Source of the DNA: a virus
Taxonomy: Duplodnaviria; Heunggongvirae; Uroviricota; Caudoviricetes
Length of the DNA: 58,606 bases
Direction: 5' to 3' (one strand)
Virus record (IMG/VR): IMGVR_UViG_3300031992_000010
Shown in pieces: positions 7,041 to 50,709 of the stretch (positions are counted from its first letter, which is position 1; every line of letters begins with the position of its first letter). A program made the translations under genes and the position numbers. The notes below the pieces were generated by a model. The model did not search any database and was not told the origin of the DNA. It was given only the letters and a program-made list of their open reading frames with translations.

Positions 7041-10000
7041 ATGGCAGAAACCAAATACGAAATCGGATTGTTGAATTATACCTGTGATACATACGAATCC
7101 GCCATTGAATTTCTTGATAATTTTGGAAAACATAAACCCGGGCAGCCAATATGTGTTTTATATGGTGAGGAGGGCAATTTGAAGGCGTTGTTCGCCGTCG
7201 GTACGGAGGCCGGTGATGGTTACGATATAGTTGGAAGTGTAAATACAAACGATATTGCCAGGTACGTAAAATGGTTTACGTTGGATGAGAATGGAAACCC
7301 CGTTCCGGATCAAAACCAATTACGATTAATCCATAATCTTCCCGACGATTTTGATTTGGATGAGTTATCAAACGGAAGTAATTTATTATTTATTCCGGTT
7401 AATGATGAAATTGGATATATATACCATAATGGAATATTATACGCCTCGCCATATATTGAGGATAAGATTACCAAAGGTGAATTAACCGTTGGTGAAACCA
7501 CATATGAGGAGGGAACCCCTCTAACCGATATTATTGTGGATATATTAGGAAAAATCGATCCCGATAATATAAAGGTTAAATGGGAAAATATCACCGGAAA
7601 ACCTGAAAAGGTCGAGGATGCATTTAATTGTTCCTCATTCCTAAAAAAGGAAAACAATTTAAGTGAGTTATTAAATAAGCAACTTGCGGCGAGAAACCTT
7701 TTGATTTGGGATGGTATGGTAAATAATACCATATTAAAAATCGAAAACGGTGAAATTAAGTGGGGTAATGTAACAATCGGCTGGTATCACGGGGATGATC
7801 CTATTCCCGGAACGGAGGTAAGATTTGTTAAAATGTCGAAGGCCGAATATGAGGCATTGACTTCGCCAAGTATATACAAACTATATTTTGTTGATGCCGG
7901 AGGCGGAACATTCGAATTATTTTTAGGTCCATATCCTATAAAACCAACATCATATAATATATATAAAAACCCAAATCCACCATCGGATTTACAGGAACAA
8001 TATATGCTTTTGGATAGTGGCGGCAACATCTGCGGGTCAACCATAGACATACCAAAGGATAAATTCGTCACCCACGCCGAATTAAAAACGGTTACCGAAC
8101 CTGATGTACCATATGAAGGGGCAAAGGTTGGGGATGAATATATAGATTTGGAGGTAATGTATTGTGAGGATCATATTTATATCCCACTTGGTGACCTTGA
8201 TGTTCCCCAAAGTGACTGGGGTGAAAATGACCCAACCTCACCCACACATATATTAAACCGTACCCATTGGACGGATGAACCGGTTGAGGAGGAGGTTATC
8301 GTTGCCGAATATACCGGTGGTAGTGATGTAAATATTCCATTAAATGAACCATTGGTTGCCGGGAAGACATATACGGTTGTTTCATCGGGTTATCCTGATG
8401 AACAATACAATTATACGATGGAAATACCGGTATTATATTATGAGAGTGGTGATTATTTCGAAATCCCTTTGCGTTATGGTAATTTTCAATCCATCGAAGG
8501 TATTGATGTAATTAGATTGAATGGTCCTACGGAGGAGAATGCCAATATTGTGATCAAATATACAAAAACAACACAGGAAATCCATTCATTATCACAGGAA
8601 TATATACAAAATCCTTTGGTTGATTGGGGTCAAAGCGATCCAACCGGTGCCGGTTATGTTAAAAATAGAACCCATTACGATGATGGAGGATATGATGATG
8701 TTATAGGTAAAACCTTAACATTTAATAATAGTGGTAATATTGGTGGTGCATATTTTTTCGATCCTTTATTTGAACCAAAGGAGGGTGAAATATATTACTT
8801 CAAGATAGGTAATTATTTGCAAAAATTAAATCCTATGGCATGGTATGAAAACAACGGACTCAAATACCTAAGTTGTAGCGGTGGAAATTATTGGGGAGGA
8901 GGAACATATTTCTTTTTTCCGGATGGAAATACCGACCCAAATTCGGGGGCTAAACGTGCGGTTGTTTCTCCGGGTGGAAACCCTAATTTTTTGAAAGGTC
9001 AAACATTTAATTTGCTTCGTAAAAAGGCTGACGCCACAAAGCCTCTTGATAAGAAATATATTCCGGCGGGTGCTTCCGATTGGAATCAAAATGACCCCAC
9101 AAGACAAGGTTATGTGGAAAATCGTACCCATTATGAGAAAATAACGGATGAGGAATATGCCGTATTTGAAGGGACATTTACAGTTGATGGGAGTTCGTGG
9201 ACGATTCCGGAGGAACATATAACGGATTATAAACTTTGGGAAACCGGTAATGTCGGTTATAATTTATTTGTATTGGAAATTGATGGAATTAGATATGGGC
9301 GTGCATCAACATATATTAGTAACACCGTTGCCTATGGTGGTGGAAATGCATTATATGATCCTACCGAAAATTATGGTGATGTGAGTTTTGGATCATTTAG
9401 TTTCGGTACGAATGGTAGTGGTTTTAATGCATACTTTTATTTTTATGCATCCGGTACAAATATAAATCCGGCAACACAGGAACCTATATTTGATCCAAAT
9501 GAAACACACTCATATAAATTTTACGGTATAAAAACGGTAAAAAATATAAAGGAGATTGAAGGTAAATATCTACCTGCCGGATCAACGTATGTTGAGCACG
9601 TTTATGATGGTGATTTTAGAGCGGAATCCGGGGATTATAATAAATATATATACTTTAATTTGGATAAGGAATACGGATTAAAGGATGCCATATTTACGGT
9701 CAATTTTCTCGGTACCGAATATAAATTAAAGTTTACAAATATATATACATATACCGGGGATTATCACGAAAATATGGAAGATTGGTATGGATCCACCCAA
9801 TATATATATTTTGATCCGAATAATAGTAATTCATATTTTTACATATATTATACGAGTGCATTTTCGACCGGGGATGGATACAATGCGTATTTATATATAT
9901 CAAAAAATAGAAACACCACATATTCAGGTCACGCAACTGTTGATGTGGAATATGTTAAGGTGCTGAATGGAAAATACCTTCCACAGGATATGTTATCCAA

Positions 10001-11486
10001 ATCGATTATTTGTAACACATCGATTTCATCACTTGATATTTCGAATGTGGTTGTTCCAAAGGACGCCAAATCGATAACCGTGGAATCGACATCACATATG
10101 ATTATGTCAAATATATTTAATGGCGATGGTAGTTATCAACGAAATGGTAATAATCCGGGACTTAATATTCCTTCAAGAAGAATGGTTGAATATAACGGAT
10201 ATATTTATTGGGTTGGTGGTGAAAATGATATAAATATTTATAGAACACCAACATCCGGCACCCAATCAGAAACCATTTGGAAAACGTTGGATTCGACCAA
10301 ATTTACATCAACGTTTAGTATTGTATGGATTTCCGGTTATCTTGTTGTTGCCGGTAATGCCTCACACCTGGCATTCATTTCATTGAGCACCGGTGAAATA
10401 ACATATACCCAATTAAATGAAACCAATACAAAATATTATTGGGTGGGTCTTGATGCCGTGGATCAAAATACGTGGGCGATTTCAACCGGATGGGGTAATT
10501 ATAATACATTGGCGGTAATGACATCCGATGGATTAAAACAAATTACACCATTAAAAATATATGGATTTAAATTCATTGATGACGTTCTTTGGATAACCCA
10601 TCAGGGTGGATTTGGTATTGGCACGTATAATTATGGGCTTTCAAAATTGGACCTTAACAATTTGGAACAGGGATTTGTAAATGTTCTTAATTTCTCAACA
10701 ACCGATATATATGGTAATATATATACAATTGGCAAATTCCCAATAAATTTCTTTATTGAGGAAATGCGTAATGCATTATATATAGTATCGTGGAAAGGAT
10801 ATATGCGTATAAGCAAGGATGGGGGTGAGACCTGGAGTCTTTATTCGCTTGGAACTTCAAGTTCCCAAACGGTAACAAAATTGGCTACAAGGTCGGACGG
10901 TACCGCATATATTTTTACAACGACATCCTATGGTATCACCATGTATAAATTAACAGGCCTTAATGGGACGAATTTTTCAAAATCGGAAATGAGAAATCAA
11001 AGTACAACACAAAATTATTCATTCCCTGTCCCGGTACAAAATGGAATATCATTCAATTACCTGTATAAGGAATATATGGGGCAAAATAGATATTCGGACA
11101 CCGCATTATATTATTATGATTTTGATTATTATTCAAAATATAAATCAATTTTAAATCAAAGTGGTTCATATGATTCGAATAAATATATTATAATAGAAAA
11201 TCTTATTGTATCGGATTATACCTATTACAATGTATTATGTAAAGTTAGAAACGCAACCACAACTTTATTTAACCTCGAATTATACTCCGGCCCAAATGAG
11301 ATTTTATTAATAGTTGATTCACCAACATGGCCAAGAAATAATGGTAATGTAGGTTTTTATTCGGCCAAAAAGAACCAATATGCCGGTGTTGAATGGTCAT
11401 TTGACCTATATAACGGCGAGGCGGAGGCAATATCGGAAAGAACATTACTTGCAACCGATGAGGAAATTGATGAAATATGTCAATAA
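7041..11486 (+). CDS. modular tail fibre/adhesin with a C-terminal beta-propeller-like region
   Basis: 1481 aa with three DWxxxD...NRTH motifs, Y/G/N-rich beta domains and an Asp-box (SKDGGETWS). Confidence 0.7.
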   Translation: MAETKYEIGLLNYTCDTYESAIEFLDNFGKHKPGQPICVLYGEEGNLKALFAVGTEAGDGYDIVGSVNTNDIARYVKWFTLDENGNPVPDQNQLRLIHNLPDDFDLDELSNGSNLLFIPVNDEIGYIYHNGILYASPYIEDKITKGELTVGETTYEEGTPLTDIIVDILGKIDPDNIKVKWENITGKPEKVEDAFNCSSFLKKENNLSELLNKQLAARNLLIWDGMVNNTILKIENGEIKWGNVTIGWYHGDDPIPGTEVRFVKMSKAEYEALTSPSIYKLYFVDAGGGTFELFLGPYPIKPTSYNIYKNPNPPSDLQEQYMLLDSGGNICGSTIDIPKDKFVTHAELKTVTEPDVPYEGAKVGDEYIDLEVMYCEDHIYIPLGDLDVPQSDWGENDPTSPTHILNRTHWTDEPVEEEVIVAEYTGGSDVNIPLNEPLVAGKTYTVVSSGYPDEQYNYTMEIPVLYYESGDYFEIPLRYGNFQSIEGIDVIRLNGPTEENANIVIKYTKTTQEIHSLSQEYIQNPLVDWGQSDPTGAGYVKNRTHYDDGGYDDVIGKTLTFNNSGNIGGAYFFDPLFEPKEGEIYYFKIGNYLQKLNPMAWYENNGLKYLSCSGGNYWGGGTYFFFPDGNTDPNSGAKRAVVSPGGNPNFLKGQTFNLLRKKADATKPLDKKYIPAGASDWNQNDPTRQGYVENRTHYEKITDEEYAVFEGTFTVDGSSWTIPEEHITDYKLWETGNVGYNLFVLEIDGIRYGRASTYISNTVAYGGGNALYDPTENYGDVSFGSFSFGTNGSGFNAYFYFYASGTNINPATQEPIFDPNETHSYKFYGIKTVKNIKEIEGKYLPAGSTYVEHVYDGDFRAESGDYNKYIYFNLDKEYGLKDAIFTVNFLGTEYKLKFTNIYTYTGDYHENMEDWYGSTQYIYFDPNNSNSYFYIYYTSAFSTGDGYNAYLYISKNRNTTYSGHATVDVEYVKVLNGKYLPQDMLSKSIICNTSISSLDISNVVVPKDAKSITVESTSHMIMSNIFNGDGSYQRNGNNPGLNIPSRRMVEYNGYIYWVGGENDINIYRTPTSGTQSETIWKTLDSTKFTSTFSIVWISGYLVVAGNASHLAFISLSTGEITYTQLNETNTKYYWVGLDAVDQNTWAISTGWGNYNTLAVMTSDGLKQITPLKIYGFKFIDDVLWITHQGGFGIGTYNYGLSKLDLNNLEQGFVNVLNFSTTDIYGNIYTIGKFPINFFIEEMRNALYIVSWKGYMRISKDGGETWSLYSLGTSSSQTVTKLATRSDGTAYIFTTTSYGITMYKLTGLNGTNFSKSEMRNQSTTQNYSFPVPVQNGISFNYLYKEYMGQNRYSDTALYYYDFDYYSKYKSILNQSGSYDSNKYIIIENLIVSDYTYYNVLCKVRNATTTLFNLELYSGPNEILLIVDSPTWPRNNGNVGFYSAKKNQYAGVEWSFDLYNGEAEAISERTLLATDEEIDEICQ

Positions 11487-11517
11487 ACAATTTTATTATT
11501 ATAAAAAATAGTTTGGT

Positions 11518-13536
11518 ATGTTAGAATACAATCTTAAACAAACATTAATAAAATTTTGGAATAAGGCGAAACAAACATTCGCATTAAAGACCGAGTTGGC
11601 ACAACCTGATTGGAACCAAAATGATGACACCCAACCCGATTATGTAAATAATCGTACGCATTGGGAGGAACCTGAAATATACAACGAGGTATTTAATGGG
11701 GAAAATCTTAATTATACAACCTCCGGCAATTTAACATCATATCAGGTAAATTCAAATATTCCGATTTTATCCGAGGGCAGACATTATGAATTAAATATCG
11801 GGGAATACAATTTTGATGGAATATGTAAAAAATATGAGAATGTTGCAGGTTCCTACGGTTATTACATAGGGAATGGAAGTATTTCAATACAAGGTGAACC
11901 TGATACCGGGGAGGATTTTATAGTTTATACATCGGGCAGATCATTATCCGCGCCTGAAATTATGTGGTTTATAATGAAAAATAACTCCCCTGCCGGAGAA
12001 TATGATACATTATTGGCTCTCCACGAAGGTGGTGTACATCGACTTGATAAAAAATTCCTGCCTGATGATGTGGTGTATAGTGACGATATCACACAATCCG
12101 ATTGGGATCAAAATAACCCCGAGGCAAGTGATTATATAAAGAATCGTACACATTGGGAGATACCTGAAACTGTAATAATGAATAAAACATTTCCTGCTCC
12201 TGGCGACGGAACAGTTTTCTTTAATTTGGATACTCCTTTAATTGCAGGTGAATTATATACTGTATCCATTCAAGGTATTTCTTCAGGATTTGATACCACG
12301 GAAGAAATAGTTGCTGCAGGAGATAGTGATGGTGCATATTTAACTAATTCTAAAGGACTTGAAATAGGGTATTCAGTTACTGGATTTCAGTCAGGATATA
12401 ATGCTTATTATACAGGTATTGGAGCAAATTATGGTGAAGTTGTTACTGTTACAAAAAGTGGAGAATTGCATCGACTTGATAAAAAATTCCTACCCGAGGA
12501 CGTGGTGTATGATGACGATATCGCACAACCTGACTGGAATCAAAATGACAACACCCAACCCGATTTCATTAAAAATAGAACACATTGGACAGAAACTGTG
12601 CACCATGAAGAACTTCTTTTTGAAGGAGATGTTACATATCAACATTATAATATGTATACAGCTTATGGAATTATATCTAATCAATTTACGGTAGATAGTC
12701 TCGAAGATTTATTAAGAATTGAAGTTTATTCGGATGGAGGACGTCTTGAAAAAAATACAAGTGAGGGGTATACATTTTATAGAAATAATAATTGGTGGTC
12801 TTTGTATTTTGTATCCTCCTTTGGAGGAACACCAAACAAATTAGTACATGATACAACAAATCCTATTACACCTACTATTCATTTAGAAATAGATGATAAT
12901 TATAAGGATACTACTCATCATATAGTAATAAAAAAAGAGTGGGATGAACAAATATATTATACTATAGATGAGCATTATATTCCTGATACAATAGCAAGAC
13001 AGTCCGAAATTGATTCCTTGGACTCTACTGCCGGAATTGCTTCTATTCAAAATGATATAATTACTTTAAAACAAGGAATTGTTCAAACTGATGGTTTGGT
13101 GGAAAATAATGGTGAACAGGATATTGAATTGGCAAAGGTTGCCAAAACAGGTAGTTATAATGACTTATTAAATAAAATATTTGTCAAAACGGATACCACC
13201 AATTTAACGCAGGCAATGAATCCAAATACATTATATGTTTGGACAAATGCACTGGTTGAAGGAAATATTCTTGCCCCTACATTGGTTGCCGCCACGGCCA
13301 CCGATATTATTTCCGAATATATGGGGAAATTTACAACAGGTGCAACGGTTCCTACGTTGAGTTTCCCTGACAATATTATATGGCAAACGGGTATACCTAC
13401 ATTACAACCGCTTCACACCTATGAATTTTCCATTATGGATAATATAGGGATATTTAGCCCTATGGGATATGTTACGGAGTCCGAGGTGCAAACCATGATC
13501 AATGCAAATAAATTAAAGTGGACAGTAATAAATTAA
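11518..13536 (+). CDS. modular tail fibre/adhesin protein
   Basis: Three DWNQND..NRTHW modules and an LAKVAKTGSYNDL fibre motif. Confidence 0.7.
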   Translation: MLEYNLKQTLIKFWNKAKQTFALKTELAQPDWNQNDDTQPDYVNNRTHWEEPEIYNEVFNGENLNYTTSGNLTSYQVNSNIPILSEGRHYELNIGEYNFDGICKKYENVAGSYGYYIGNGSISIQGEPDTGEDFIVYTSGRSLSAPEIMWFIMKNNSPAGEYDTLLALHEGGVHRLDKKFLPDDVVYSDDITQSDWDQNNPEASDYIKNRTHWEIPETVIMNKTFPAPGDGTVFFNLDTPLIAGELYTVSIQGISSGFDTTEEIVAAGDSDGAYLTNSKGLEIGYSVTGFQSGYNAYYTGIGANYGEVVTVTKSGELHRLDKKFLPEDVVYDDDIAQPDWNQNDNTQPDFIKNRTHWTETVHHEELLFEGDVTYQHYNMYTAYGIISNQFTVDSLEDLLRIEVYSDGGRLEKNTSEGYTFYRNNNWWSLYFVSSFGGTPNKLVHDTTNPITPTIHLEIDDNYKDTTHHIVIKKEWDEQIYYTIDEHYIPDTIARQSEIDSLDSTAGIASIQNDIITLKQGIVQTDGLVENNGEQDIELAKVAKTGSYNDLLNKIFVKTDTTNLTQAMNPNTLYVWTNALVEGNILAPTLVAATATDIISEYMGKFTTGATVPTLSFPDNIIWQTGIPTLQPLHTYEFSIMDNIGIFSPMGYVTESEVQTMINANKLKWTVIN

Positions 13537-13542
13537 TACATT

Positions 13543-14151
13543 ATGTTTGGTAGAAGAAGAATATTATTTCCTGCACAAGGAGTGGAGACAGGGGAGCCGG
13601 TTACCCCGGGTCCGAAGATACTTTATGATATGCTTGTAGATACATATAATGTAGTTACATCTTATAAATTATCGGATATACATAGTGATGAGGAAACACC
13701 CTGGAAAAAGTTAACATATACATTTAGTGCCCCCAACACATCCCTAAAGGTGGCCATGAAAACCCAGTTAAGTATAATTCAAAGAAATGCCGATGTTATA
13801 TATGATGAGATTACTCATACAGTAACGGATTTAGACGGTTATACCACCACTAAAACAAGTCCTCTACTATGTTTAATCCATACTATAGATTTAGGTTCAA
13901 ATCAAATAGGACGGGAGATTTTATTAAGTGATATGGTTGCATTGGATGGTATTTATGAAAATTTTCCTTTAATAGGCAGTAAACTTGCAATTTATGATAC
14001 GGATGTATCCAAATTTCCTTATTATAAGCAAAATACAATAGAAGTTTATGAAAATAAAATAAAGATTATAGGAAATATATTACTTAATAAGGATTATTTT
14101 TTAGTAAACATGGAGCAAAAAAAGGCCATGCATTTTGTATTTATGGGATAA
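13543..14151 (+). CDS. hypothetical protein in the tail-fibre block
   Basis: 202-aa ORF tightly packed between fibre genes; MFGRRRILF start. Confidence 0.65.
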   Translation: MFGRRRILFPAQGVETGEPVTPGPKILYDMLVDTYNVVTSYKLSDIHSDEETPWKKLTYTFSAPNTSLKVAMKTQLSIIQRNADVIYDEITHTVTDLDGYTTTKTSPLLCLIHTIDLGSNQIGREILLSDMVALDGIYENFPLIGSKLAIYDTDVSKFPYYKQNTIEVYENKIKIIGNILLNKDYFLVNMEQKKAMHFVFMG

Positions 14152-14164
14152 AAAAATTACAATT

Positions 14165-16495
14165 ATGGATAATAATACGGATGTTAAATTTTATGCCTTA
14201 TTAAAGGCTTCGTTGCCTACGGCACCGAAAGTTGATGGGGCATTTTATTTTTGCAAGGATACTGATGAAATGTATATATATGAAGGTTCCGTTGAAAGTG
14301 GCTCCTTTCATTATTTAGGAAAACAATCCGACTGGAATCAAAATAACCCCGAGGTGGGAGATTATATAAAGAATCGCACCCATTGGAAGGAAATAGTTGG
14401 AACCGACTATTCATCCGATATGGACTTTACCCAATTATATTATGGAGTCAATACGGATGATGGAGGTAAAATGGATCATTTTGATTACGGTTATGCAAGA
14501 TTCGATGTGGTGAATCAGGATCCGGAGGCATTTATAGACCGTTCCTTCCACCGGGATTCAACAGGTGATCCGCTTGAAGGTAAAATAGAATGGTATGACG
14601 AGGTTGAGACCGGATGGTTTGAGATGTATGGTGATGGGTACCTTATTGCAGTTCTTGTGACCGACGATTATGATCCACAATCCGTTCAATTTCATACGGT
14701 TGATGAGAATGGTTTCCCGGTTGATTTTACAACAACACCGGGTCTATATGTGGTAAATGCCATAAATGGAAGCGTGGAGGATGGTGAAATACTTGGATTA
14801 TTTGATTTCTTCATCGACCACGAAACAATATATCACACAATAGGCAAGGAATATTTACCTCCTGTTGAATGGGATGAAATCCTAAATAAAACACACGGAA
14901 TTGAGGAAACGACAGGCGAAACCATTGTGATTGAGGCAAGTGCGTTTACCGATGATGATGAATTTTGTACGGCAACATTTGCGGATTCATATACAACCTG
15001 TTACCGTAAATTTGGTTTAATATACGAGGATGGATGGGTTGATGAATGGTATGGTTCATTAAAGATGCTAAAAGCCGGGGAGACCGAGTTTATTGATTGT
15101 AGTGATGGTATCCCAATGTTTGAGGCCGGTGATTTATTATTATTTGGTAACCCGCACCTATATGATAGTACATTTGAGGATAATGGTGAACTATATGTGG
15201 CATATGAGTTGGTTTCAAATCAGGATAACCATTGGAATATAAAAATCGATTCCGAATTTGCCTGGTTGGAAGAATTGACCGAAATGGATATTCAGGATAT
15301 TGCAAATATCAAAAAACTTGATAAGGTATATCTTCCGTCCGATACGGTATACCAACACGACCTTGCACCTGTTGCAACCTCAAATGACTACAATGACTTG
15401 GATAACAAACCAACAATTCCGGTTCAACCTACCAAAACGAGTGATTTAATCAACGATGGTAATGGCGATAGTCCTTCAAATCCTTTTGTTACGGAAAATG
15501 ATTTGGAGGCCGTTCAGGATCTTATTTCCACCGAGGCCTCGGAACAAAATAAACTTATATCACAATCGGAGGCGGAGGAAATGGTACAAACCTTATCACT
15601 CTCACCTATTGTTGCCGACAATACGGGTACAAAATCCTTTGATTTTGAATCGGTTATGTATTCATCGATGGTTCCGGATTCAACCAATCTTGAGATCGGT
15701 CCTTGGTATAAAAACGAGGGTTCGGGTTTTGTTGAATGTGGTTCCACATCGGGGGTATATGTAGGATTGAATGATTCCACGGTCGTGCTTAACGATGAAT
15801 CACTATTCTATTACTTTGCCCACGGCTACCGTTATCAAAGAATAAAAATCGGTGTTGTGGGTGTATATGGTAAGATTAGGACACCATACGGGGAAAATGT
15901 TGACCTAATATATTCCGATGGAACGGGTTTGTCGGGTAAATTTGCAGGTGTACCTTGTATATATTTTTATGACGACCACAACCAGTTTGGTCATAATTCC
16001 CGTGTTATATATGTATGCAGGGTTTCCAACCTTGTATCCAAAACAAACGCGGCCGAGGAATACCTGATGGCAAACGCAACGGATACAATAAACGATATCG
16101 CGGGGGGCGATGATCCGGACGCAACATATGATATTATTTATCCTACAACAAAATATGTATGTACGCAGGCGCAAACGGCCTCATCCGACCCGGTATGGAC
16201 ATATTTATTCACCGTAAATGATACAACATTTTCCAACGAGGAATGGGCCGTATTGAAATCAAAGGCCACAAGGGAAAAGATAGGACAGATAGAAACAAAT
16301 AGACAGGCAATTGAAGGTCTTGCGGATGTGGCAAGGTCGGGTTCCTATAATGATTTGAATGATACACCGTCCATTCCTACCAAAACGAGTGACCTGGTGA
16401 ATGATGGTGAAGGCGATTCGCCTTTGAACCCATATATAAAATCAAGTGATTTGGTGGCAGGTCAAAGTGATTTGGATTATATAATGGGGAATTAA
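14165..16495 (+). CDS. acidic modular tail fibre/adhesin protein
   Basis: One DWNQNN..NRTHW module and two copies of Y/NDL...PTKTSDL.NDG.GDSP.NP. Start moved to MDNNTD at 14165. Confidence 0.65.
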   Translation: MDNNTDVKFYALLKASLPTAPKVDGAFYFCKDTDEMYIYEGSVESGSFHYLGKQSDWNQNNPEVGDYIKNRTHWKEIVGTDYSSDMDFTQLYYGVNTDDGGKMDHFDYGYARFDVVNQDPEAFIDRSFHRDSTGDPLEGKIEWYDEVETGWFEMYGDGYLIAVLVTDDYDPQSVQFHTVDENGFPVDFTTTPGLYVVNAINGSVEDGEILGLFDFFIDHETIYHTIGKEYLPPVEWDEILNKTHGIEETTGETIVIEASAFTDDDEFCTATFADSYTTCYRKFGLIYEDGWVDEWYGSLKMLKAGETEFIDCSDGIPMFEAGDLLLFGNPHLYDSTFEDNGELYVAYELVSNQDNHWNIKIDSEFAWLEELTEMDIQDIANIKKLDKVYLPSDTVYQHDLAPVATSNDYNDLDNKPTIPVQPTKTSDLINDGNGDSPSNPFVTENDLEAVQDLISTEASEQNKLISQSEAEEMVQTLSLSPIVADNTGTKSFDFESVMYSSMVPDSTNLEIGPWYKNEGSGFVECGSTSGVYVGLNDSTVVLNDESLFYYFAHGYRYQRIKIGVVGVYGKIRTPYGENVDLIYSDGTGLSGKFAGVPCIYFYDDHNQFGHNSRVIYVCRVSNLVSKTNAAEEYLMANATDTINDIAGGDDPDATYDIIYPTTKYVCTQAQTASSDPVWTYLFTVNDTTFSNEEWAVLKSKATREKIGQIETNRQAIEGLADVARSGSYNDLNDTPSIPTKTSDLVNDGEGDSPLNPYIKSSDLVAGQSDLDYIMGN

Positions 16496-16527
16496 TTATT
16501 ATTATTATAAAATAAATACTATGGAAT

Positions 16528-19500
16528 ATGGCTTTGGATATAAATTTAAGAAATACATTAAAGGCAGTTGTTAATGAAGTAAAAACCTTTATATCAGGCA
16601 CCTACCTCTCAAAATCAAACAATCTTTCGGATGTGTCAAATAGACAAACCGCCCTCAATACGTTATTGGGTGCGGATACAACAAAGGCAGGTAGTATTCC
16701 TTATGTGGATGCCACCGGAAATATCATATTGACAAATAGATACGAGAGTGGTGCGGGGATGGTTGCCAATGAAGTATCCATCCATGACCATAGAAATAGT
16801 CTTGTAGGACCGTCCGGGGATGTTTACGTTCCCATGATGTATTTCATACATAGGAATTCGATGGACAAATTTGAGTTGGAATTTTCCGTTTTTTCCGTCG
16901 ACAATCAATCCCTACCTACATATTACGGTCGATATGTATTTAACCGCTCAAATGTAGTCGGTATGAGATTCTACTGCCTCGATTGGGTATGTAGCAACAA
17001 TGCGCAGATGGACTATGATGATATTCTTGCAGTTGATTCAGGCAGCATCACCCATGATGGTATACAATATGATACGACGACAATCTACCGCAAAAGATCC
17101 AATACCCCGGATTTTGCCGCATATTGTATACATTCAATGTCCACATATTCATATGATTGGTCAAGGGGATACGTTATTCCGACATATTATACGGGCAATT
17201 ATGACCATGTGCCGTTGAAGGATGGTGAGCAGATTCTTGCGACCACCGACCTAAAATCATTAAATGACCTTACAAATCCGGTTGTCCCAATACGTCAATC
17301 AACACAACCTGACTGGAATCAAAATGATAGTGAAGCAGCCGATCATATAAAGAATAGGATATGTTACAGTGAAACTTCCGGTAGCCCATATAAAAATGGT
17401 GATACTGATGTATCAGTGGAAGTCAATTTGAGTCAAACCGTAACATTTAAATATGATGTATATGATTATTTGGAATCCACTGATGAAATATTAGGTAGAA
17501 CTTTGACACTTAACGCAATGGGTCAAACTATGGAATTAAATATAGATGATTCCGCCATATATGCTGAAACAAATGGTTCATTTCTTATTGTCCAGTCAGG
17601 AAATGAATTGCCATTTGTTGCAAACATAAAGGACTCATCTTTTCAATTTTATCAACTGTTTGGTAGAACAGGATTATTCATTGTTAGTGGTATGATAAAC
17701 CCGGCGCAAGCAGATTATGAATATTATCTATCAGCACAGGAGACAATTCATAAAATAGATGACAAATATTTACCAACACAAGCGGCACGCGTCGGGCATG
17801 GCATAAACTCTGTTGAGGAAAGCAGAGGACTTGCATTTGGTGGGTATTCCCATGCGGAAGGTTTGAGTGATGTTTATGATACACTTGAATTGACATATAG
17901 TAGTACAAATACATATACTGTAGATTATGAGGTTGAAAAAGAATTGATTGGCCGTTATGTGTTTTATAATGGACAATATTATCAAATAACGGATATACAA
18001 TATGATGACGCCAATGACGTATCTACCATCGAATTTGATGGACTCGATGTAAATGATACAATAGAAGTTGATGTTTTTACTGGAGCTTCCGGGGATTATT
18101 CCCATGTGGAAGGATACCGTACAACAGCAATTGGTAATAACTCCCATGCAGAAGGGAAAAATACAATCACAAGTGGAGGTAATTCCCATGCAGAAGGATA
18201 CCTCGCAATAGCAAGTGGCGATGATTCCCATGCGGAAGGATATAATACAATGGCAAGTGGTGAAACTTCCCATGCAGAAGGATATAATACGGCAGCAAGT
18301 GGTAATTATTCTCATGCAGAAGGACAAGCCACAAAAGCAAGTGGTGAAACTTCCCATGCAGAAGGATACCTCACAATAGCAAGTGGTGAAACTTCCCATG
18401 CGGAAGGATACTACACAATAGCAGCGTCAGGCTCCCAACACGTTTTTGGAAAATATAATGTCGAGGATAATTATAAAACGGGTATTCCTGAATGGGTAGG
18501 CGGTACATCATATCAAGTGGGTGATAAAGTCCTTCGAAATAATGAATTATATCAATGCAGGACTGCAAATAATGATTCAAGTTTTGTTTATTCAAAATGG
18601 GATTATAAAGGAGACATTGGTACCTATATCGAAATAGTTGGTAATGGTACATCAAATAACTCCCGCTCAAATGCCCGTACACTTGATTGGGATGGTAATG
18701 AAATATTGAAAGGTAATCTTACAATTGGTAATGCATTAAATACCGGAACAAGTACTTTGACGGGAGCAAATAGTTTAACAATAACAAATACACAAGGCTC
18801 CTATCAAGGTTCAATTCAAAGTTTAAATATTATTAGTAAGTCGCGTTCGGTATTGAATATTCTTTCCGGAGGAACATCAGGTACAACATCAACAATAAAT
18901 ATTAGTACCTGGTCGGATGACCCTACCAATGTATCAAATATGGATTCAGGTTCCGGTGGGGGTATGAATATTTATACGGAGAAATTAAAATTATTTAATC
19001 AAACATCTCCTGCACAAGGTTTATTTATAAATACCTTTGGACACCTACAATCGTCCGGTAATTCATTTACGATTGAAAATACCGGTGAAGGACAAACCGC
19101 CACAAACCTATATCTTATCGCACAACCCGGTGAAGGTGCAACAGGTCCCGGAACCGCATATCTTCAAGGTAAAGGTAATCCAAATTCAGGGGCAGGAGGT
19201 TCGGTTTATGTTGAAGCCACCGGTTCCGGAAGTGGTGGGGGTGGTTACCTAAATTTAACGGCATCAGGCTCGCAGGATACGGCGACATCAGGATCAGGAG
19301 GTACGGTTAATATAACGGCAATTGGTGCAGGTAATGCCGGTGGAGGTACAATTAACATAACATCATACGCCGCCCAAAATGGAACAGGCCGAAGTGGAGG
19401 TGCGATTTATATTTCCGCACAATCGGGTACTTCCGACAGTTCAATAAGTATTGCCGCCGACACCATTACACTTGCCGGTGCGGTTAAACAACTTAAAAAG

Positions 19501-19788
19501 GCCATATCAACATCATCCTGTACACCGGATACATATTACTGTCCAACTGCGGCCATTGCCGCCCTTGTATGTGATGATACAGGTTTTACCGGTGATTACA
19601 ATTATACATTCTCCGGTTGCTTTACTGCAGCCGCAGGTATGACACAAATGCCTACACAAACCGATTATCAATCAATAACAATGACCTGGTATGGTGATAT
19701 CGGTATAGAGACCGGCGAGAGATATATGTTCTGCTCAACAAAGGTATCTGCAACGGAATATGTCGGGGTAGTGACAAAATTAGTATAA
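16528..19788 (+). CDS. tail fibre/adhesin with YadA-head-like SHAEG repeats, a CBM5/12-like motif and a Gly-rich C-terminus
   Basis: 14-aa SHAEG repeats, PEWVGGTSYQVGDKVLRNNELYQC motif and a G/S/T-rich beta region. Confidence 0.7.
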   Translation: MALDINLRNTLKAVVNEVKTFISGTYLSKSNNLSDVSNRQTALNTLLGADTTKAGSIPYVDATGNIILTNRYESGAGMVANEVSIHDHRNSLVGPSGDVYVPMMYFIHRNSMDKFELEFSVFSVDNQSLPTYYGRYVFNRSNVVGMRFYCLDWVCSNNAQMDYDDILAVDSGSITHDGIQYDTTTIYRKRSNTPDFAAYCIHSMSTYSYDWSRGYVIPTYYTGNYDHVPLKDGEQILATTDLKSLNDLTNPVVPIRQSTQPDWNQNDSEAADHIKNRICYSETSGSPYKNGDTDVSVEVNLSQTVTFKYDVYDYLESTDEILGRTLTLNAMGQTMELNIDDSAIYAETNGSFLIVQSGNELPFVANIKDSSFQFYQLFGRTGLFIVSGMINPAQADYEYYLSAQETIHKIDDKYLPTQAARVGHGINSVEESRGLAFGGYSHAEGLSDVYDTLELTYSSTNTYTVDYEVEKELIGRYVFYNGQYYQITDIQYDDANDVSTIEFDGLDVNDTIEVDVFTGASGDYSHVEGYRTTAIGNNSHAEGKNTITSGGNSHAEGYLAIASGDDSHAEGYNTMASGETSHAEGYNTAASGNYSHAEGQATKASGETSHAEGYLTIASGETSHAEGYYTIAASGSQHVFGKYNVEDNYKTGIPEWVGGTSYQVGDKVLRNNELYQCRTANNDSSFVYSKWDYKGDIGTYIEIVGNGTSNNSRSNARTLDWDGNEILKGNLTIGNALNTGTSTLTGANSLTITNTQGSYQGSIQSLNIISKSRSVLNILSGGTSGTTSTINISTWSDDPTNVSNMDSGSGGGMNIYTEKLKLFNQTSPAQGLFINTFGHLQSSGNSFTIENTGEGQTATNLYLIAQPGEGATGPGTAYLQGKGNPNSGAGGSVYVEATGSGSGGGGYLNLTASGSQDTATSGSGGTVNITAIGAGNAGGGTINITSYAAQNGTGRSGGAIYISAQSGTSDSSISIAADTITLAGAVKQLKKAISTSSCTPDTYYCPTAAIAALVCDDTGFTGDYNYTFSGCFTAAAGMTQMPTQTDYQSITMTWYGDIGIETGERYMFCSTKVSATEYVGVVTKLV
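18097..18432 (+). repeat. 42-nt tandem repeat, 8 copies (xSHAEGxxTxASGx)
   Basis: Recurrent TCCCATGC(A/G)GAAGGA core at 42-nt spacing. Confidence 0.9.
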
Positions 19789-19794
19789 AGGATT

Positions 19795-21288
19795 ATGAAT
19801 GAGGTATTATTAACCGGATTATTATTGCGTAAGGCATTAGGAGGATACAAACGTATGATATATGGTACCACCCGACAGGCGAATAAAACCATCGGGTGCC
19901 GTTTTAACAATACGTATACATATAATACCAATGATAGAAAATGGGAATATACCGGAGGAACATTAATTACGGCCACATCGGATTCGGATAAGTATTTCGA
20001 GATAGAAATACCTGAAAATATGGCAATTACCAATTTTACATTCGATTCATCCTTTGGTGCACATCAGGATAATCCTGATCAAATAATAACGATAAACCTT
20101 TCGAATATAGGTAAGGTGAACCGGTTGGAAATGTTGTTGTATGCGTTTTCAAACCTCACACAGGTAACAGCCATAGCCGGATTCAATAAATTCGCACAAT
20201 CACCGTTACTTACAATGGAAGGTTGTTTCCGCGCCTGTGAAAAATTGGTTTCATTGGATTTTACCGGCCTTAACACCGACGATATGGTGGCCGGTTCATC
20301 CGGGGGTAGTGCCCGTTATGGATTTCCAAACTGTTTTTATAATTGTGTTTCATTGGAGCATTTGGTTCTCCCAAAAATTCCTTCAACGTGTTATATGGGC
20401 GGGGGGACATTTTTTGGTTGTGAAAAATTGTCATCCGTGGAATGTAGTGGAGAGGTGGCCAACGACCTTTGGTTGGTAACACAATCCTCATCAACAGGTA
20501 TAACCGGTGGTGCGCCTCTTACAAGGGATTCAATGAGAAATGTTCTTTCCCATCTTTCAGCCACACATCCGGCAACCTGCGAATTTTGGGACGCCGCGTG
20601 GTATTGGACAACGGCCGACCCACAATGTCAAACGCTGGTAACTGCCGCGGAAGGAAATGGTTGGACATTTACACCTACGTATCCGGTATATTGGTTCGAT
20701 GATTGTAAAACATATGACCATTTCCATACCTCATCGGCCGGATGTTATCTTGTAGGCCTTGAAAAATCAACCGATGCAAATCCTTGTACATATATGGTTG
20801 GTAAAACATATATGATATGTAATGAATCCGCTTCAATGACAACACACGACCACGGTGAATATAGGTTTGATTCAGGTATGGATCTCACAAACGCCACCCA
20901 ATTGGATATTGTTATAAAGGATTTTATGTGGACACAGGACCCCGGAACAGGTTCCTCAAATCGTATAGGTCTTACCCGTACAGGTATTGATACAAGGGAT
21001 TCATCCCAAACCCGGCTGACAACGGTAAATGATAACTTCCCATTCTATATAAGGTGGGTTGATTCAAACGGAAATACCGGTTCCTGGACCCTTTTGGAGA
21101 CCATACATACCACACAATATAGTCAATCGGACACAACAACAACACAAATAACGCATACCATTTCATTACCTTCGTCGGGTTTCAATGGTAGTTCCGTGGC
21201 AGGTTTTGATATAATGTATATGAAAACCGATGATAGTGCAAAGGAAAGAATAAAAGGTTGTTGGTATGGGTCAATAATTATTAAATAA
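19795..21288 (+). CDS. BspA-like leucine-rich-repeat protein, tail-associated
   Basis: CFRACEKLVSLDF, CFYNCVSLEHL and TFFGCEKLSSV repeats. Confidence 0.6.
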   Translation: MNEVLLTGLLLRKALGGYKRMIYGTTRQANKTIGCRFNNTYTYNTNDRKWEYTGGTLITATSDSDKYFEIEIPENMAITNFTFDSSFGAHQDNPDQIITINLSNIGKVNRLEMLLYAFSNLTQVTAIAGFNKFAQSPLLTMEGCFRACEKLVSLDFTGLNTDDMVAGSSGGSARYGFPNCFYNCVSLEHLVLPKIPSTCYMGGGTFFGCEKLSSVECSGEVANDLWLVTQSSSTGITGGAPLTRDSMRNVLSHLSATHPATCEFWDAAWYWTTADPQCQTLVTAAEGNGWTFTPTYPVYWFDDCKTYDHFHTSSAGCYLVGLEKSTDANPCTYMVGKTYMICNESASMTTHDHGEYRFDSGMDLTNATQLDIVIKDFMWTQDPGTGSSNRIGLTRTGIDTRDSSQTRLTTVNDNFPFYIRWVDSNGNTGSWTLLETIHTTQYSQSDTTTTQITHTISLPSSGFNGSSVAGFDIMYMKTDDSAKERIKGCWYGSIIIK

Positions 21289-21741: not shown

Positions 21742-21768
21742 AGGGTGCCTAATTAGGTACCCTTTTTT
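21742..21768 (+). terminator. intrinsic terminator
   Basis: AGGGTGCCT-AATT-AGGTACCCT followed by a T run. Confidence 0.75.
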
Positions 21769-23389
21769 ATTTATATACAATTTCCCATTTGGTATGGCCT
21801 GAATCATATATGCGGTAATATGGCAGATTCATCATAATATCCTTTTCGGTCATATTTGACGAGGTTGCATATTGTTTAATCCGGTTCTTTTGAAATGAGG
21901 TGCGGTGGTAACGTATATGTGTTGTTTTATGTACATACCAATATGATACGGTCGAACCTCCGTTGGTGAATCCTAATTTTTTATATAGCCCGCCGTTGCT
22001 TATATCATTAGATGAAAATGATACGATTTTTTTAGGATGGTAATTTTTATTAAAATATGTCAGTAATTTTTCGGCACCGCCAACAACCTGCATATTTATT
22101 TTTGTACAAAACCGGTTTAATTCCCAACAATCATCATTCATTCCTCCTGAAACCTTCGACCGGTGGTTGAATGTCATTACACCGACAAGTTCGGTATTAA
22201 AATATAATCCCATGCGAACCTTTGTTTTTGTGCGGCCTTGAATGTGATTGGATTCAAGAAATTCCATACAGGTTGATGGGTCAATTTCCTTTATTAAACA
22301 TTGCCGCGCATATATCCGGGTTTGGTATATGCCCAATTTTGATAATGCAACCGATCGGGCTATATCCGGTGCGGTTATGATTTGATCCTCCCAAATGGTT
22401 ATTAGTTGGATTCCTGCATCCCTACATTTAATATATTTATTATAATGATATTTATTATCCTTTTTTAAATCACTATGCCAATAACATCCGTTACATTCGA
22501 ATGCAATCCCCCTATCCGGAATATAAATATCCAATTCGTAAGGTGATATGACCGACCGTATGTTGGTTTCATATTTTATATTATATTCATCCAAAATATT
22601 TTTTATAAACTTTTCAGGCCAGGTATCCATATTTCCCACGGATTTTATTGGAAGTAATTTGGTGCACGGCTCAATATTAAATTCCCGGCGTGCGAAAAAT
22701 TGGTCGTTTTCTATTATATATGTTTTCTCCTTACATTTATCACATCCACTGTGCGGACACATACATATCCAACCTCCATCCTTCGTATATCCCACAATAT
22801 TGGAATGCCCATTAATATACCTGACCTGATTGGACTTTTTTATTTTATCCTTTACATCCGGTAGGGATTGAACCCGTTCCACACCATATTTACGAATATT
22901 ATTTTTTATTTGGGTCTCCTGGACCTGTTTTGATTGTGATGGATATTCGACACCATAACGTTGTTTGTTGGTATTCCTGATTTTTTGTTTAACATCCTCC
23001 GATTGAAATGGATTTTCCACACCATACCTTTCCAACGTGGTTTGTATGGCCTTTTCCCTATTATTATATGAGGCATCACCATATTTTAACACCTTCGTAT
23101 TTATTATTTTTTGTACCCGGCCCGGATTCATATTCATACACTCCACACTACAACATTCATTGTATCCATAAACCGAATTACGAAATCCCACAGGTTTTCC
23201 ACAATAACATTTTGGTCGTTCCGTAATATCGTGGAGTAGCCAATATATACCCTCCGAAAATGTTATATCCGGAAATTTAAATAATATATAATTGTATACG
23301 TCAGGAAAATGTTTACGTATATATCCTGCGGTTCTTGCATTTGGCTTGATGCCCAAAATTACATTTTTGTATGAAGCTATATCCATCAA
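21767..23389 (-). mobile_element. free-standing Hef-like (PD-(D/E)xK/Vsr-like) homing endonuclease gene, copy 1
   Basis: CxC..CSxxC zinc motif, (K/R)YGV(E/D)N repeats, YELDIYIP...AFECNGCYWH nuclease motif and a GNAT-like C-terminus ending YRIYDSG.TKW. It lies next to the DNA polymerase gene. Confidence 0.7.
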
Positions 23390-40853: not shown

Positions 40854-41680
40854 ATGAATTATCCGCAATCATTACAATCAATAAGGACAGGCAGATCCAG
40901 TTTGGAAAAATGGCTTCAAAAAAACTATCCGGAATTTAAGTTATTTTTGGATGAAAAATATCCGGGCACCTCATATCAATGTGGGTTATATATGTTTTAT
41001 AACGGAATTGATTCCATACCATTATGTGATTGTGGAAAACCTGTTAAATTTTACGGGAACCAATATGGTTTTGCCCGTTGGTGTAGCCCCACCTGTGCCC
41101 AAACAAGTAATGAAATATTAAATAAGCACAAATCCACCTGTTTGGAACGATATGGTGTTGAATATTCATTACAAAATGATAAAATAAGAATGAAGGCAAT
41201 CCAAACAAAGGAGGAAAAATATGGTGATCGAAATTATAATAATAAACAAAAATATAAATCCACCTGTTTGGAACGATATGGTGTGGATAATCCACAAAAA
41301 TCCCAAATTATAAGGAAAAAGGTGGAAAATACCTGTTTGGAACGATATGGCGAGACCTCATTTTTGAAGACACAAACGGTAAAAAAAATAAATGATGAAA
41401 AATTTATTTTAAATAACCCATATTTTATCTCAAAGGTTGGTGATGTATATAAATTCAAATGTTCAAATCCAAACTGCAATAAATGTTCCGAAAAGGAATA
41501 TGAAACAAATTATGATCTTCATTATCAACGAATAAATGTATATAACATCGAGCCGTGCCCAAAATGTATAGGCATTGGTGAGTCGGTCCAAATAAAACGG
41601 AGGAACAAATAATGTTGGAGACCGGTTATCTAAAAATATATGATACCGGACAAAGCAAATGGGTATTTAAAAACCATTAA
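40854..41680 (+). pseudogene. Hef-like endonuclease copy 2, internally deleted
   Basis: The N-terminal zinc and YGV repeats are intact (ORF ends at 41612). The family C-terminus (TEEQIMLETGYLKIYDTGQSKW) lies in another frame at 41582-41680. Nuclease and GNAT-like domains are absent. Confidence 0.8.
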
Positions 41681-49013: not shown

Positions 49014-49035
49014 AATTATTGAAATAATATTGGAA

Positions 49036-50709
49036 ATGGACATAACATATTTATTGCAACAACCAAGGACAAGATGTAAGGAGGTTCATATAAGCAAATG
49101 GTTCCCACAGGATTACAACGAAATACTTAAACAACCCGGTACAAAATTTACGGAGAAATTATACCAATATATGTATAATAATCCGGAACATATATGTCCT
49201 GTATGTGGTAAACAAACCCCATTTCAAAATTTTATTTCCGGTTATTCCAAATATTGTAGTGTTAAATGTAGTGCCAACGATGAGGAATGTACAAAATTAA
49301 AAAAGGAAACCATATTGGAAAAATATGGTGTTGACAATATATCCAAATTGGAATCCATCAAACAGGTAAAAAAGGATATAATGAATGAACGGTATGGCGG
49401 CTTTTACAATAACAGGGATAAGGCAAGGAAAACAATGTTGGAAAAATATGGTGTTGACAATATATCCAAATTGGAATCCATCAAACAGGTAAAAAAGGAT
49501 ATAATGAATGAACGGTATGGCGGCTTTTATAACAATAGGGATAAGGCAACGAAAACAATGCTGGAAAAATATGGTATAAAAAGCACGTTGGCCTTGCCGG
49601 AGGTTAGACAAAAGGCATTGGAAACCAAAAGAAAACGGTTTCTTGACATAAATGATGATATAATTGATTATGATGGTGATTTGTGGATAATGAAATGTCC
49701 ACACCCGGAATGTCAAAAATGTAAGGAAAAAACATTTAAAACACCACAAGGTATATATCACGATAGAAAACGTGACGGGTATGAATTATGTACAAATATA
49801 TTACCAATACAGGATATCCGGGTATCAAATACATCGATCGAAATTTTTGTTAAACAAATTTTGGATGAATATGGTATTAAATATGAGGAAAATGTAAGAA
49901 ATATAATTCCACCAAAGGAGTTGGATATTTATATTCCCGATATGCATATTGCGTTTGAATGTAACGGGTGTTATTGGCATAGTGATTTTAGGGATCACCG
50001 GCCAAAACGTCATTATGAAAAATATAAATTATGCCGGGATAAAGGGATTCAATTAATTACAATTTGGGAGGATTGGACCTATAATAAATCGGATATTTTA
50101 AAATCCATTATAAAAACAAAATTGGGTTTAATTGAAAATAAAATTTACGCAAGGAAATGTGAATTGGTGGATATATCAAACCAAAAAACATTGGTAAATA
50201 ATTTCCTTGATGTAAACCATATACAAGGCCATACCGTTTTTGAAAAATGTATTGGTGCCTATTATTGTGGTGAGTTGGCCGCCGTGATGACCTTTGGACA
50301 TAAACGGGGATGTCGTGGGGGTGCCGGTAAGGTATCAAATGAATGGGAATTAAGTAGGTTTTGTACAAAAATGGATGTGATTATTCCCGGCATTGCAAGC
50401 AGGTTATTGAAAAAATTCGAATATGAATTTAAACCGGAAATAATATATTCATTTTCATCCAACGATATTAGTTCCGGTAATTTATATAAAATACTTGGAT
50501 TTGAGGAGGAACAAACAACGATTCCATATTGGTACATTGAACCCAAAACATTAAAACGTTACCATAGAACGGCATTTACAAAAAGGGAGATGATACGGAA
50601 ACAAATGGCATCCGACTCGGATAATTTTACGGAATCCGAAATAATGAAAAAATATCATTTTTATAAGATTTATGATTCCGGAATGACCAGGTGGGAAAAA
50701 CATCCTTGA
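49036..50709 (+). mobile_element. free-standing Hef-like homing endonuclease gene, copy 3
   Basis: Same architecture as copy 1 (KELDIYIP..AFECNGCYWH and YKIYDSG.TRW); downstream of the portal. Confidence 0.7.
49317..49563 (+). repeat. 123-nt near-perfect tandem duplication (41 aa)
   Basis: EKYGVDNISKLESIKQVKKDIMNERYGGFYNNRDKA occurs twice, starting at 49318 and 49441. Confidence 0.95.

Follow-up and report, generated by a model that had tools for sequence, protein, structure and literature searches.

The window analysed here is a stretch of 58,606 nucleotides (nt) from a virus of the Caudoviricetes (IMG/VR record IMGVR_UViG_3300031992_000010), and the subject of this work is a cluster of genes in it that encode fibre-like proteins built from bracketed modules. 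A T4-like B-family polymerase, a terminase, a portal and a tail sheath are all encoded in the window, and the metagenome runs with this stretch were from sheep or other ruminant gut; gene B was also present on a contig of 210 kb. Judged by this gene content and occurrence, the source is an uncultured jumbo myovirus of about 210 kb from the sheep gut. Six + strand genes, from 7041 to 21288, make up the cluster and were named A to F; an NDK-like gene block is on one side of it and the DNA polymerase on the other, away from the sheath gene.

7041-11486, + strand: gene A, 1481 aa, fibre-like; N-terminal region, bracketed modules A1-A3, A4 with a closing motif only, C-terminal region with an Asp-box
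11518-13536, + strand: gene B, 672 aa; modules B1-B3, then a C-terminal cap
13543-14151, + strand: gene C, 202 aa; without the motif
14135-16495, + strand: gene D, 776-786 aa; modules D1 and D2, shaft repeats at 15428 and 16376, conserved middle domain
16528-19788, + strand: gene E, 1086 aa; module E1, 14-aa YadA-head-like repeats, CBM5/12-like segment, C-terminal cap
19795-21288, + strand: gene F, 497 aa; weak match to a BspA-type leucine-rich repeat (LRR); conserved right border of the cluster

Opening and closing motifs of the modules

The original prediction, made from the sequence of the window, described an opening motif and a closing motif placed around dissimilar domains. Both counts were confirmed: there are eight opening motifs across four genes, each of 19 codons (57 nt) from the aspartate to the final aromatic residue, and ten closing motifs. 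A relaxed opening pattern gave eight matches in the window and none in 2,000 shuffles, and the closing pattern gave ten matches compared with 0.011 expected from shuffles. All eight opening motifs lie on the + strand inside open genes, and none was found elsewhere by a six-frame search. The literal consensus first proposed for the opening motif fits none of the eight copies exactly; the copy at 17311 ends in I-C-Y. The bracketing of each module by both motifs holds for most modules, but A4 and D2 have a closing motif without a canonical opening. The core between the two motifs is 103-148 aa long. The modules, all on the + strand, are as follows.

A1, gene A, + strand: opening 8214-8270, closing 8580-8609
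A2, gene A, + strand: opening 8622-8678, closing 9036-9065
A3, gene A, + strand: opening 9078-9134, closing 9546-9575
A4, gene A, + strand: closing 9954-9983 only
B1, gene B, + strand: opening 11608-11664, closing 12034-12063; modelled as monomer and trimer
B2, gene B, + strand: opening 12100-12156, closing 12466-12495
B3, gene B, + strand: opening 12532-12588, closing 12955-12984
D1, gene D, + strand: opening 14330-14386, closing 14831-14860
D2, gene D, + strand: degenerate opening 14870, closing 15308-15337
E1, gene E, + strand: opening 17311-17367, closing 17746-17775

Module family and predicted structure

The distribution of the module was investigated with a profile of 110 modules, which was compared with 1.84 billion proteins (a 50%-identity library). 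The search returned 14,994 representatives at E ≤ 0.001 and 8,239 at 1e-10, and no Pfam or PHROG family covered the module when the 110 modules were scanned. Furthermore, 368 homologues of gene B were obtained among 8,000 scored candidates. The inner spacer of the opening motif was five residues in 297 of 297 copies from diverse phages, and the module length across the family was mostly 130-176 aa. In view of these two results, the fixed 57 nt are best read as a property of the protein and not as evidence for a DNA-level cassette signal; the motifs also form the predicted trimer interface described below. A sister opening motif ending in N-K-P is present in gene A of the distant relative L018 and in many homologues.

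After the motifs were stripped, 451 cores were compared; they formed at least two families, of 304 and 42 cores, with 105 cores unassigned. These two families showed no profile similarity (hhalign probability <2%), use identical brackets, and are mixed in 19 proteins. As for their fold relation, hhalign was negative, yet both models list several common weak PDB matches. Among the window cores, only the assignments of B1 to family 0 and E1 to family 1 were significant, and A1, B2 and D2 were borderline.

The homologues carry Phage_fiber_2, BppU_N, Mtd_N, PTR and YadA_head domains, and their loci in other phages lie between tail and lysis genes. These domains and this genome position favour a tail-fibre role but are not proof of it, and the proteins are probably tail fibres. 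The fibre genes of the window themselves gave no strong Pfam or PHROG tail-fibre match, and no tail-attachment domain was detected in them. Among species genomes, 24 loci carried the family; the labels of their bins were mostly Clostridia and Bacteroidales, and where a title named the sample, it was from gut. One family member (L056:10001-12559) lies on a 192-kb contig that translates only with TAG as Q, probably a recoded phage. Gene B had no match among GenBank phages, and the upstream 737-aa gene had none in IMG/VR. Among the proteins of 597-1901 aa searched, none qualified as a donor or close relative of the E1 cassette, and a literature search for the motif strings retrieved only unrelated papers.

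The structure of two modules was predicted with AlphaFold2. The B1 model (110-row alignment) had a mean predicted local distance difference test score (pLDDT) of 91 and was all-beta, with long first (22-42) and last (133-147) strands, and the E1 model was beta-rich with a pLDDT of 76. When three copies of B1 were predicted together, the score was 0.71, compared with 0.01 for the best control; in the calibration, 20 of 30 solved homo-pairs but 1 of 23 single chains attained the mark set for this score. Contact agreement in the trimer runs was at least 11%, and partner pLDDT at least 67. Every confident inter-chain contact in the trimer model involved residues 1-23 or 146-156, that is, the two motifs, and the knob made no confident inter-chain contacts. 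B1 is thus predicted to be a trimeric shaft of motifs with a lateral beta-sandwich knob.

The B1 and E1 models were compared with 48,161 PDB representatives, and the best Z values were 5.3 and 4.7, respectively; these were weak generic beta-sandwich matches, including tailspike C-terminal domains. In BFVD, the fold search produced a single unnamed match (E 1e-6) and, near 1e-3, matches to two siphovirus proteins that are uncharacterised. The modules had no clear fold match in the PDB or the Atlas, which does not itself show a new fold.

Several other parts of the fibre genes were also recorded. The Asp-box motif of gene A, at 10812-10835 in the C-terminal region, suggests a beta-propeller head. 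A second short shaft repeat, with a P-T-K-T-S-D-L motif and a glycine/proline tail, occurs at 15428 and 16376 of the window, in genes A, B and E of L018 and in gene E of the more distant relative L023; its copy number varies, and it is common to several fibre paralogues. In gene E, 14-codon tandem repeats with a weak YadA-head match are followed by a CBM5/12-like segment (18057-18465), which together are the most variable part of the cluster, and strain L020 differs in the copy number and sequence of these repeats. The products of genes B and E both terminate in a short cap domain, and a smaller gene, C or F, comes next (13200-14151 and 19500-21288). As L018 is without both the B cap and C, cap and following gene may be pairs of a fibre tip and an adhesin.

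Exchange at the junctions and in relatives

The following features bear on the exchange of modules.

12037-12117, + strand: B1/B2 junction, consisting of closing motif, linker and start of opening motif; 85% identical to 12469-12549
12469-12549, + strand: B2/B3 junction; 97.5% identical to the B1/B2 junction of L018
17299-17778, + strand: E1 cassette; 480 nt, that is, 160 codons, with both motifs inside
8736-9009, + strand: A2 core block; about 40-70% nt identical to strain L024, with flanks at 88-98%

The exact 23-nt repeat reported at 12037 and 12469 was confirmed. Over 81 nt, the B1/B2 junction of L018 resembles the B2/B3 junction of the window and follows it at 11 of 12 informative sites, after which it reverts to the orthologous copy. 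In strains at 98-99% identity, 8 of 10 variant sites in the two B junctions take the base of the paralogue (Fisher P 3e-6; third positions P 0.005), and at the remaining two sites one strain has an identical new base in both junctions. Moreover, variant sites were about six times denser in the junctions (19 in 240 nt) than in the cores (14 in 1048 nt; P 7e-7), though the junctions are conserved in protein. The paralogue-directed variants, silent ones included, together with the dense variants in conserved junctions, therefore indicate DNA exchange between junction copies. This is good evidence, drawn from sequence comparison, that the B1/B2 and B2/B3 junctions serve as DNA homology, and protein constraint alone does not predict the pattern.

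The broader statement that the borders keep nucleotide identity stood for three pairs only, at 82-86%: the B1/B2 and B2/B3 junctions (85%, 81 nt), the B2 and D1 openings (12100 and 14330, 86% over 66 nt) and the B1 and B3 openings (11608 and 12532, 82% over 66 nt). The last pair had been given as a resemblance across genes, but both copies lie in one gene. Most borders showed no excess. The mean nucleotide identity of the opening motifs was 63% for the 28 within-window pairs and 61% for 96 pairs with other phages, and the synonymous identity of most opening pairs was close to the expectation from codon usage. The best P value for synonymous identity among the 28 opening pairs was 0.009, and none survived correction for 28 tests; for the pair of B junctions, P was 0.005 over 63 nt.

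Invariant module content had been named beforehand as the outcome that speaks against shuffling. Instead, whole modules were found to be gained, lost and fused at motifs, both in close relatives and family-wide. The E1 cassette is absent in frame from strain L020 (96-97% identical) and from Logan contig L026, and a 953-aa gene E in a third data set fits the loss of E1 by length only. L018 has three fibre genes where the window has five. Its gene B keeps 92% identity as far as B2; within the closing motif (about 12480-12490) it changes over to sequence homologous to the region after D2, so that the fusion is without B3, the B cap, C, D1 and D2, which were lost together. The gene A orthologue of L018 has the same four modules. 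In L023, the D orthologue has a single cassette, and the E site is occupied by a different core. In addition, a bovine-gut contig (3,864 nt; run X8, record 20) matches the window only over 14333-15427, the D1-D2 block from the D1 opening onward, and both of its flanks are unmatched. Near-identical cores also occur beside unrelated neighbours elsewhere in the family, such as P0014 and P0104, with a 99% identical core. At A2, the core version of L024 matches L018 at 86-98%. Recombinational domain shuffling, as first proposed, was therefore upheld in part: module gain, loss and fusion and paralogue-directed junctions were observed, but the A2 swap breaks inside the core, the fixed 57 nt are no evidence of a DNA cassette signal, and the relatives of this phage showed no reordering, their common modules being always colinear and without duplication.

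Both ends of the E1 cassette carry an 8-nt repeat, and simple deletion through this repeat was considered and rejected, as the junction it predicts is unlike that of L020. The B2 (12166-12462) and B3 (12598-12951) cores have a GC content at third codon positions (GC3) of 0.10 and 0.14, compared with 0.35-0.44 in backbone segments and the polymerase; such low values are consistent with import of these cores.

Outside the cluster, genes resembling DUF7487 or homing endonucleases lie at 21767-23389, 49030-50709 and 40854-41612, and the one that adjoins the polymerase is missing from L021. In L018 (18811-22573) the polymerase is split, with a weak intein-splicing match, and in the window it is an intact 967-aa gene.

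Proposed explanation, its alternatives and known systems

We consider it likely that these genes encode homotrimeric fibres of about 150-aa knob-on-shaft repeats, whose modules are exchanged by ordinary homologous recombination at structural shaft motifs, with no dedicated system. The 19-residue opening motif and the closing motif of about ten residues would be two halves of one shaft segment, and a beta-sandwich of 100-150 aa would loop out between them, bringing the halves together. Three chains are predicted to pack through the motifs only, and this packing would fix the motif length and let the knobs diverge or be replaced. Between co-infecting phages or between repeats, general phage or host recombination would use 30-120 nt of homology at the junctions and would resolve mostly there because closing motif, linker and opening motif are the only sequence common to non-orthologous modules. 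Such events would add, delete or fuse whole modules in frame, and short conversion tracts would homogenise neighbouring junctions, outcomes that are seen by comparison of the relatives. Selection for an intact trimer register would filter the survivors, and a dedicated recombinase or reverse transcriptase would not be required. The knobs probably bind host-surface glycans or proteins.

In favour of this explanation, family-wide, 18 of 20 in-array ends of high-identity segments fell within 8 aa of a border, compared with 47% expected (P 8e-5). Several points weigh against it. Motif conservation lengthens alignments and inflates this figure. The breakpoints of the A2 allele swap fall inside the core. 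The E1-less allele also differs in its flanks, over about 17000-18750, and therefore appears to travel as a larger block; judged from these alleles, recombination from junction to junction does not account for the gain or loss of E1. One of the three trimer runs scored 0.00, and the score calibration is based on two copies. In the window genome, the cluster does not adjoin recognised baseplate genes. The strain loci, moreover, are short-read assemblies from few samples.

It was also considered whether protein constraint and selection alone could produce the pattern, with illegitimate recombination occurring anywhere, only border events giving a trimer that folds, and the motifs not used as homology. 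This is in line with most borders having no excess synonymous identity, with the break of the A2 swap inside the core, with the motifs being the predicted interface and with the E1 indel, which removes both motifs at a site without a partner repeat. We regard it as improbable, as the paralogue-directed variants and raised variant density of the junctions need DNA exchange between copies, and in the L018 fusion the switch is from one closing motif to a homologous one. It is highly unlikely that the junction variants and module indels stem from mis-assembly across the 23-nt and 81-nt repeats. Logan contigs do break at 12035 and within the 14-aa repeats, but separate assemblies agree on the variants (L024 and L025; L027 and L028; L020 and L026), and the variants form short patches whose flanks are not exchanged; neither the E1 indel nor the L018 fusion falls at an exact repeat, and both are in frame. 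There is a modest chance that the proteins are not tail fibres but trimeric appendages elsewhere on the virion (head, collar or whisker fibres), with feed particles, mucus or glycans as ligands in place of the infection receptor. The place of the cluster away from the sheath gene, the lack of a strong tail-fibre match in the window genes and the CBM5/12-like, YadA-like and LRR segments, which are generic adhesion parts, would suit such a role. However, homologues are fused to BppU_N or Mtd_N and stand at the usual fibre position before lysis genes, and this alternative would alter the location of the proteins and leave the module mechanism unchanged.

Diversity-generating retroelements and invertible switches (Mu Gin, P1 Cin) diversify phage host-binding proteins. 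A dedicated cassette-shuffling system at this locus, with the 57-nt motif as the recombination site of a specific phage or host enzyme that generates population variation, would agree with the exact motif length in all copies, the precise 160-codon presence or absence of E1 and the active homogenisation of two junctions. It is nevertheless very improbable: the motifs have no invariant DNA core (63% mean identity, as between genomes), modules are colinear in all relatives, and no well-supported motif-to-motif joints were among those listed for four other runs (contigs only); most joints in these contigs were short AT-rich matches that came from other organisms and were set aside. Within 6.5-21.5 kb, neither flanking inverted repeats nor silent cassettes were seen, the inverted matches being short, imperfect and AT-rich, and there was no template and variable repeat pair with adenine-only changes; in the closest junction pair, 6 of 12 differences were T/C or T/G. 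No alternative inverted cassettes flanked by recombination sites, as in an invertible switch, were present in the cluster. No recombinase or reverse transcriptase was found among the 29 open reading frames (ORFs) scanned, a part of the ~210-kb genome, and no site-specific recombinase among the flanking genes scanned or annotated, small ORFs being partly covered.

Ordinary recombination at structural motifs agrees with what is known from other phages, and domain swapping in fibres is well documented (PMC12143355; bioRxiv 10.64898/2026.05.12.724579). In T-even gp37/gp38 adhesins, of which gp38 has glycine-rich motifs and hypervariable segments, conserved motifs form the structural core and exchanges often fall in or near motifs (Trojet et al. 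2011, PMC3157838), and recombination at T-even fibre motifs was described by Tetart et al. 1998, as cited in PMC3157838. The window is alike in its conserved motifs as core, its variable segments looping out and its exchanges near motifs. Unlike gp38, a monomer (PMC12032242) with a fixed number of four short segments, deletion of which was not viable, the window proteins have whole folded domains of 100-150 aa on a predicted trimer shaft, in variable number and with exchange across paralogous genes. No sequence match was found between the modules and T-even gp37/gp38. In E. coli phage tailspikes (PMC10408124), motifs of 63-81% DNA identity flank a swappable receptor-binding domain and are proposed recombination hotspots, as in the window; those tailspikes have one terminal domain per protein, whereas the window has many internal modules and its motifs form the predicted shaft of the repeat itself. 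The antireceptors of Streptococcus thermophilus phages are also similar, being tail proteins whose variable domains are set apart by trimer-type repeats (PMC5601072, citing Duplessis and Moineau 2001). There, collagen-like spacers stand between domains, whereas in the window a split motif brackets an inserted domain. T4 gp34 distal, pyocin knobs (RBPseg, PMC12143355) and Bdellovibrio MAT fibres (PMC10769870) are trimeric fibres made from reused mobile domains. The window modules had no clear structural match to gp34-type pseudo-domains, pyocin knobs or MAT fibres. On present evidence, homology of the modules to any of the compared fibre systems is not shown, and the likeness would be one of working principle.

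Recombination of fibre genes at conserved structural motifs has been on record since the T-even work. What is new is an abundant repeat family without a Pfam or PHROG model, a structural reason for the fixed border, namely a predicted trimer axis made of the motifs, with a lateral knob, and strain-level snapshots in one wild phage lineage of cassette presence and absence, cross-gene fusion and junction conversion. Tentatively, the split shaft motif could be a socket common to gut phages of several morphotypes and host phyla, the ~15,000 clusters being one exchangeable pool of plug-in beta-sandwich knobs that junction conversion keeps recombinable; the knobs may be lectin-like domains of one or more undescribed folds. 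With a short profile, many gut-phage genes now called 'hypothetical' could be labelled probable fibres and divided into ~150-aa units, which the models show as well folded. Such units could be expressed and ligand-screened, tying uncultured rumen phages to host surfaces.

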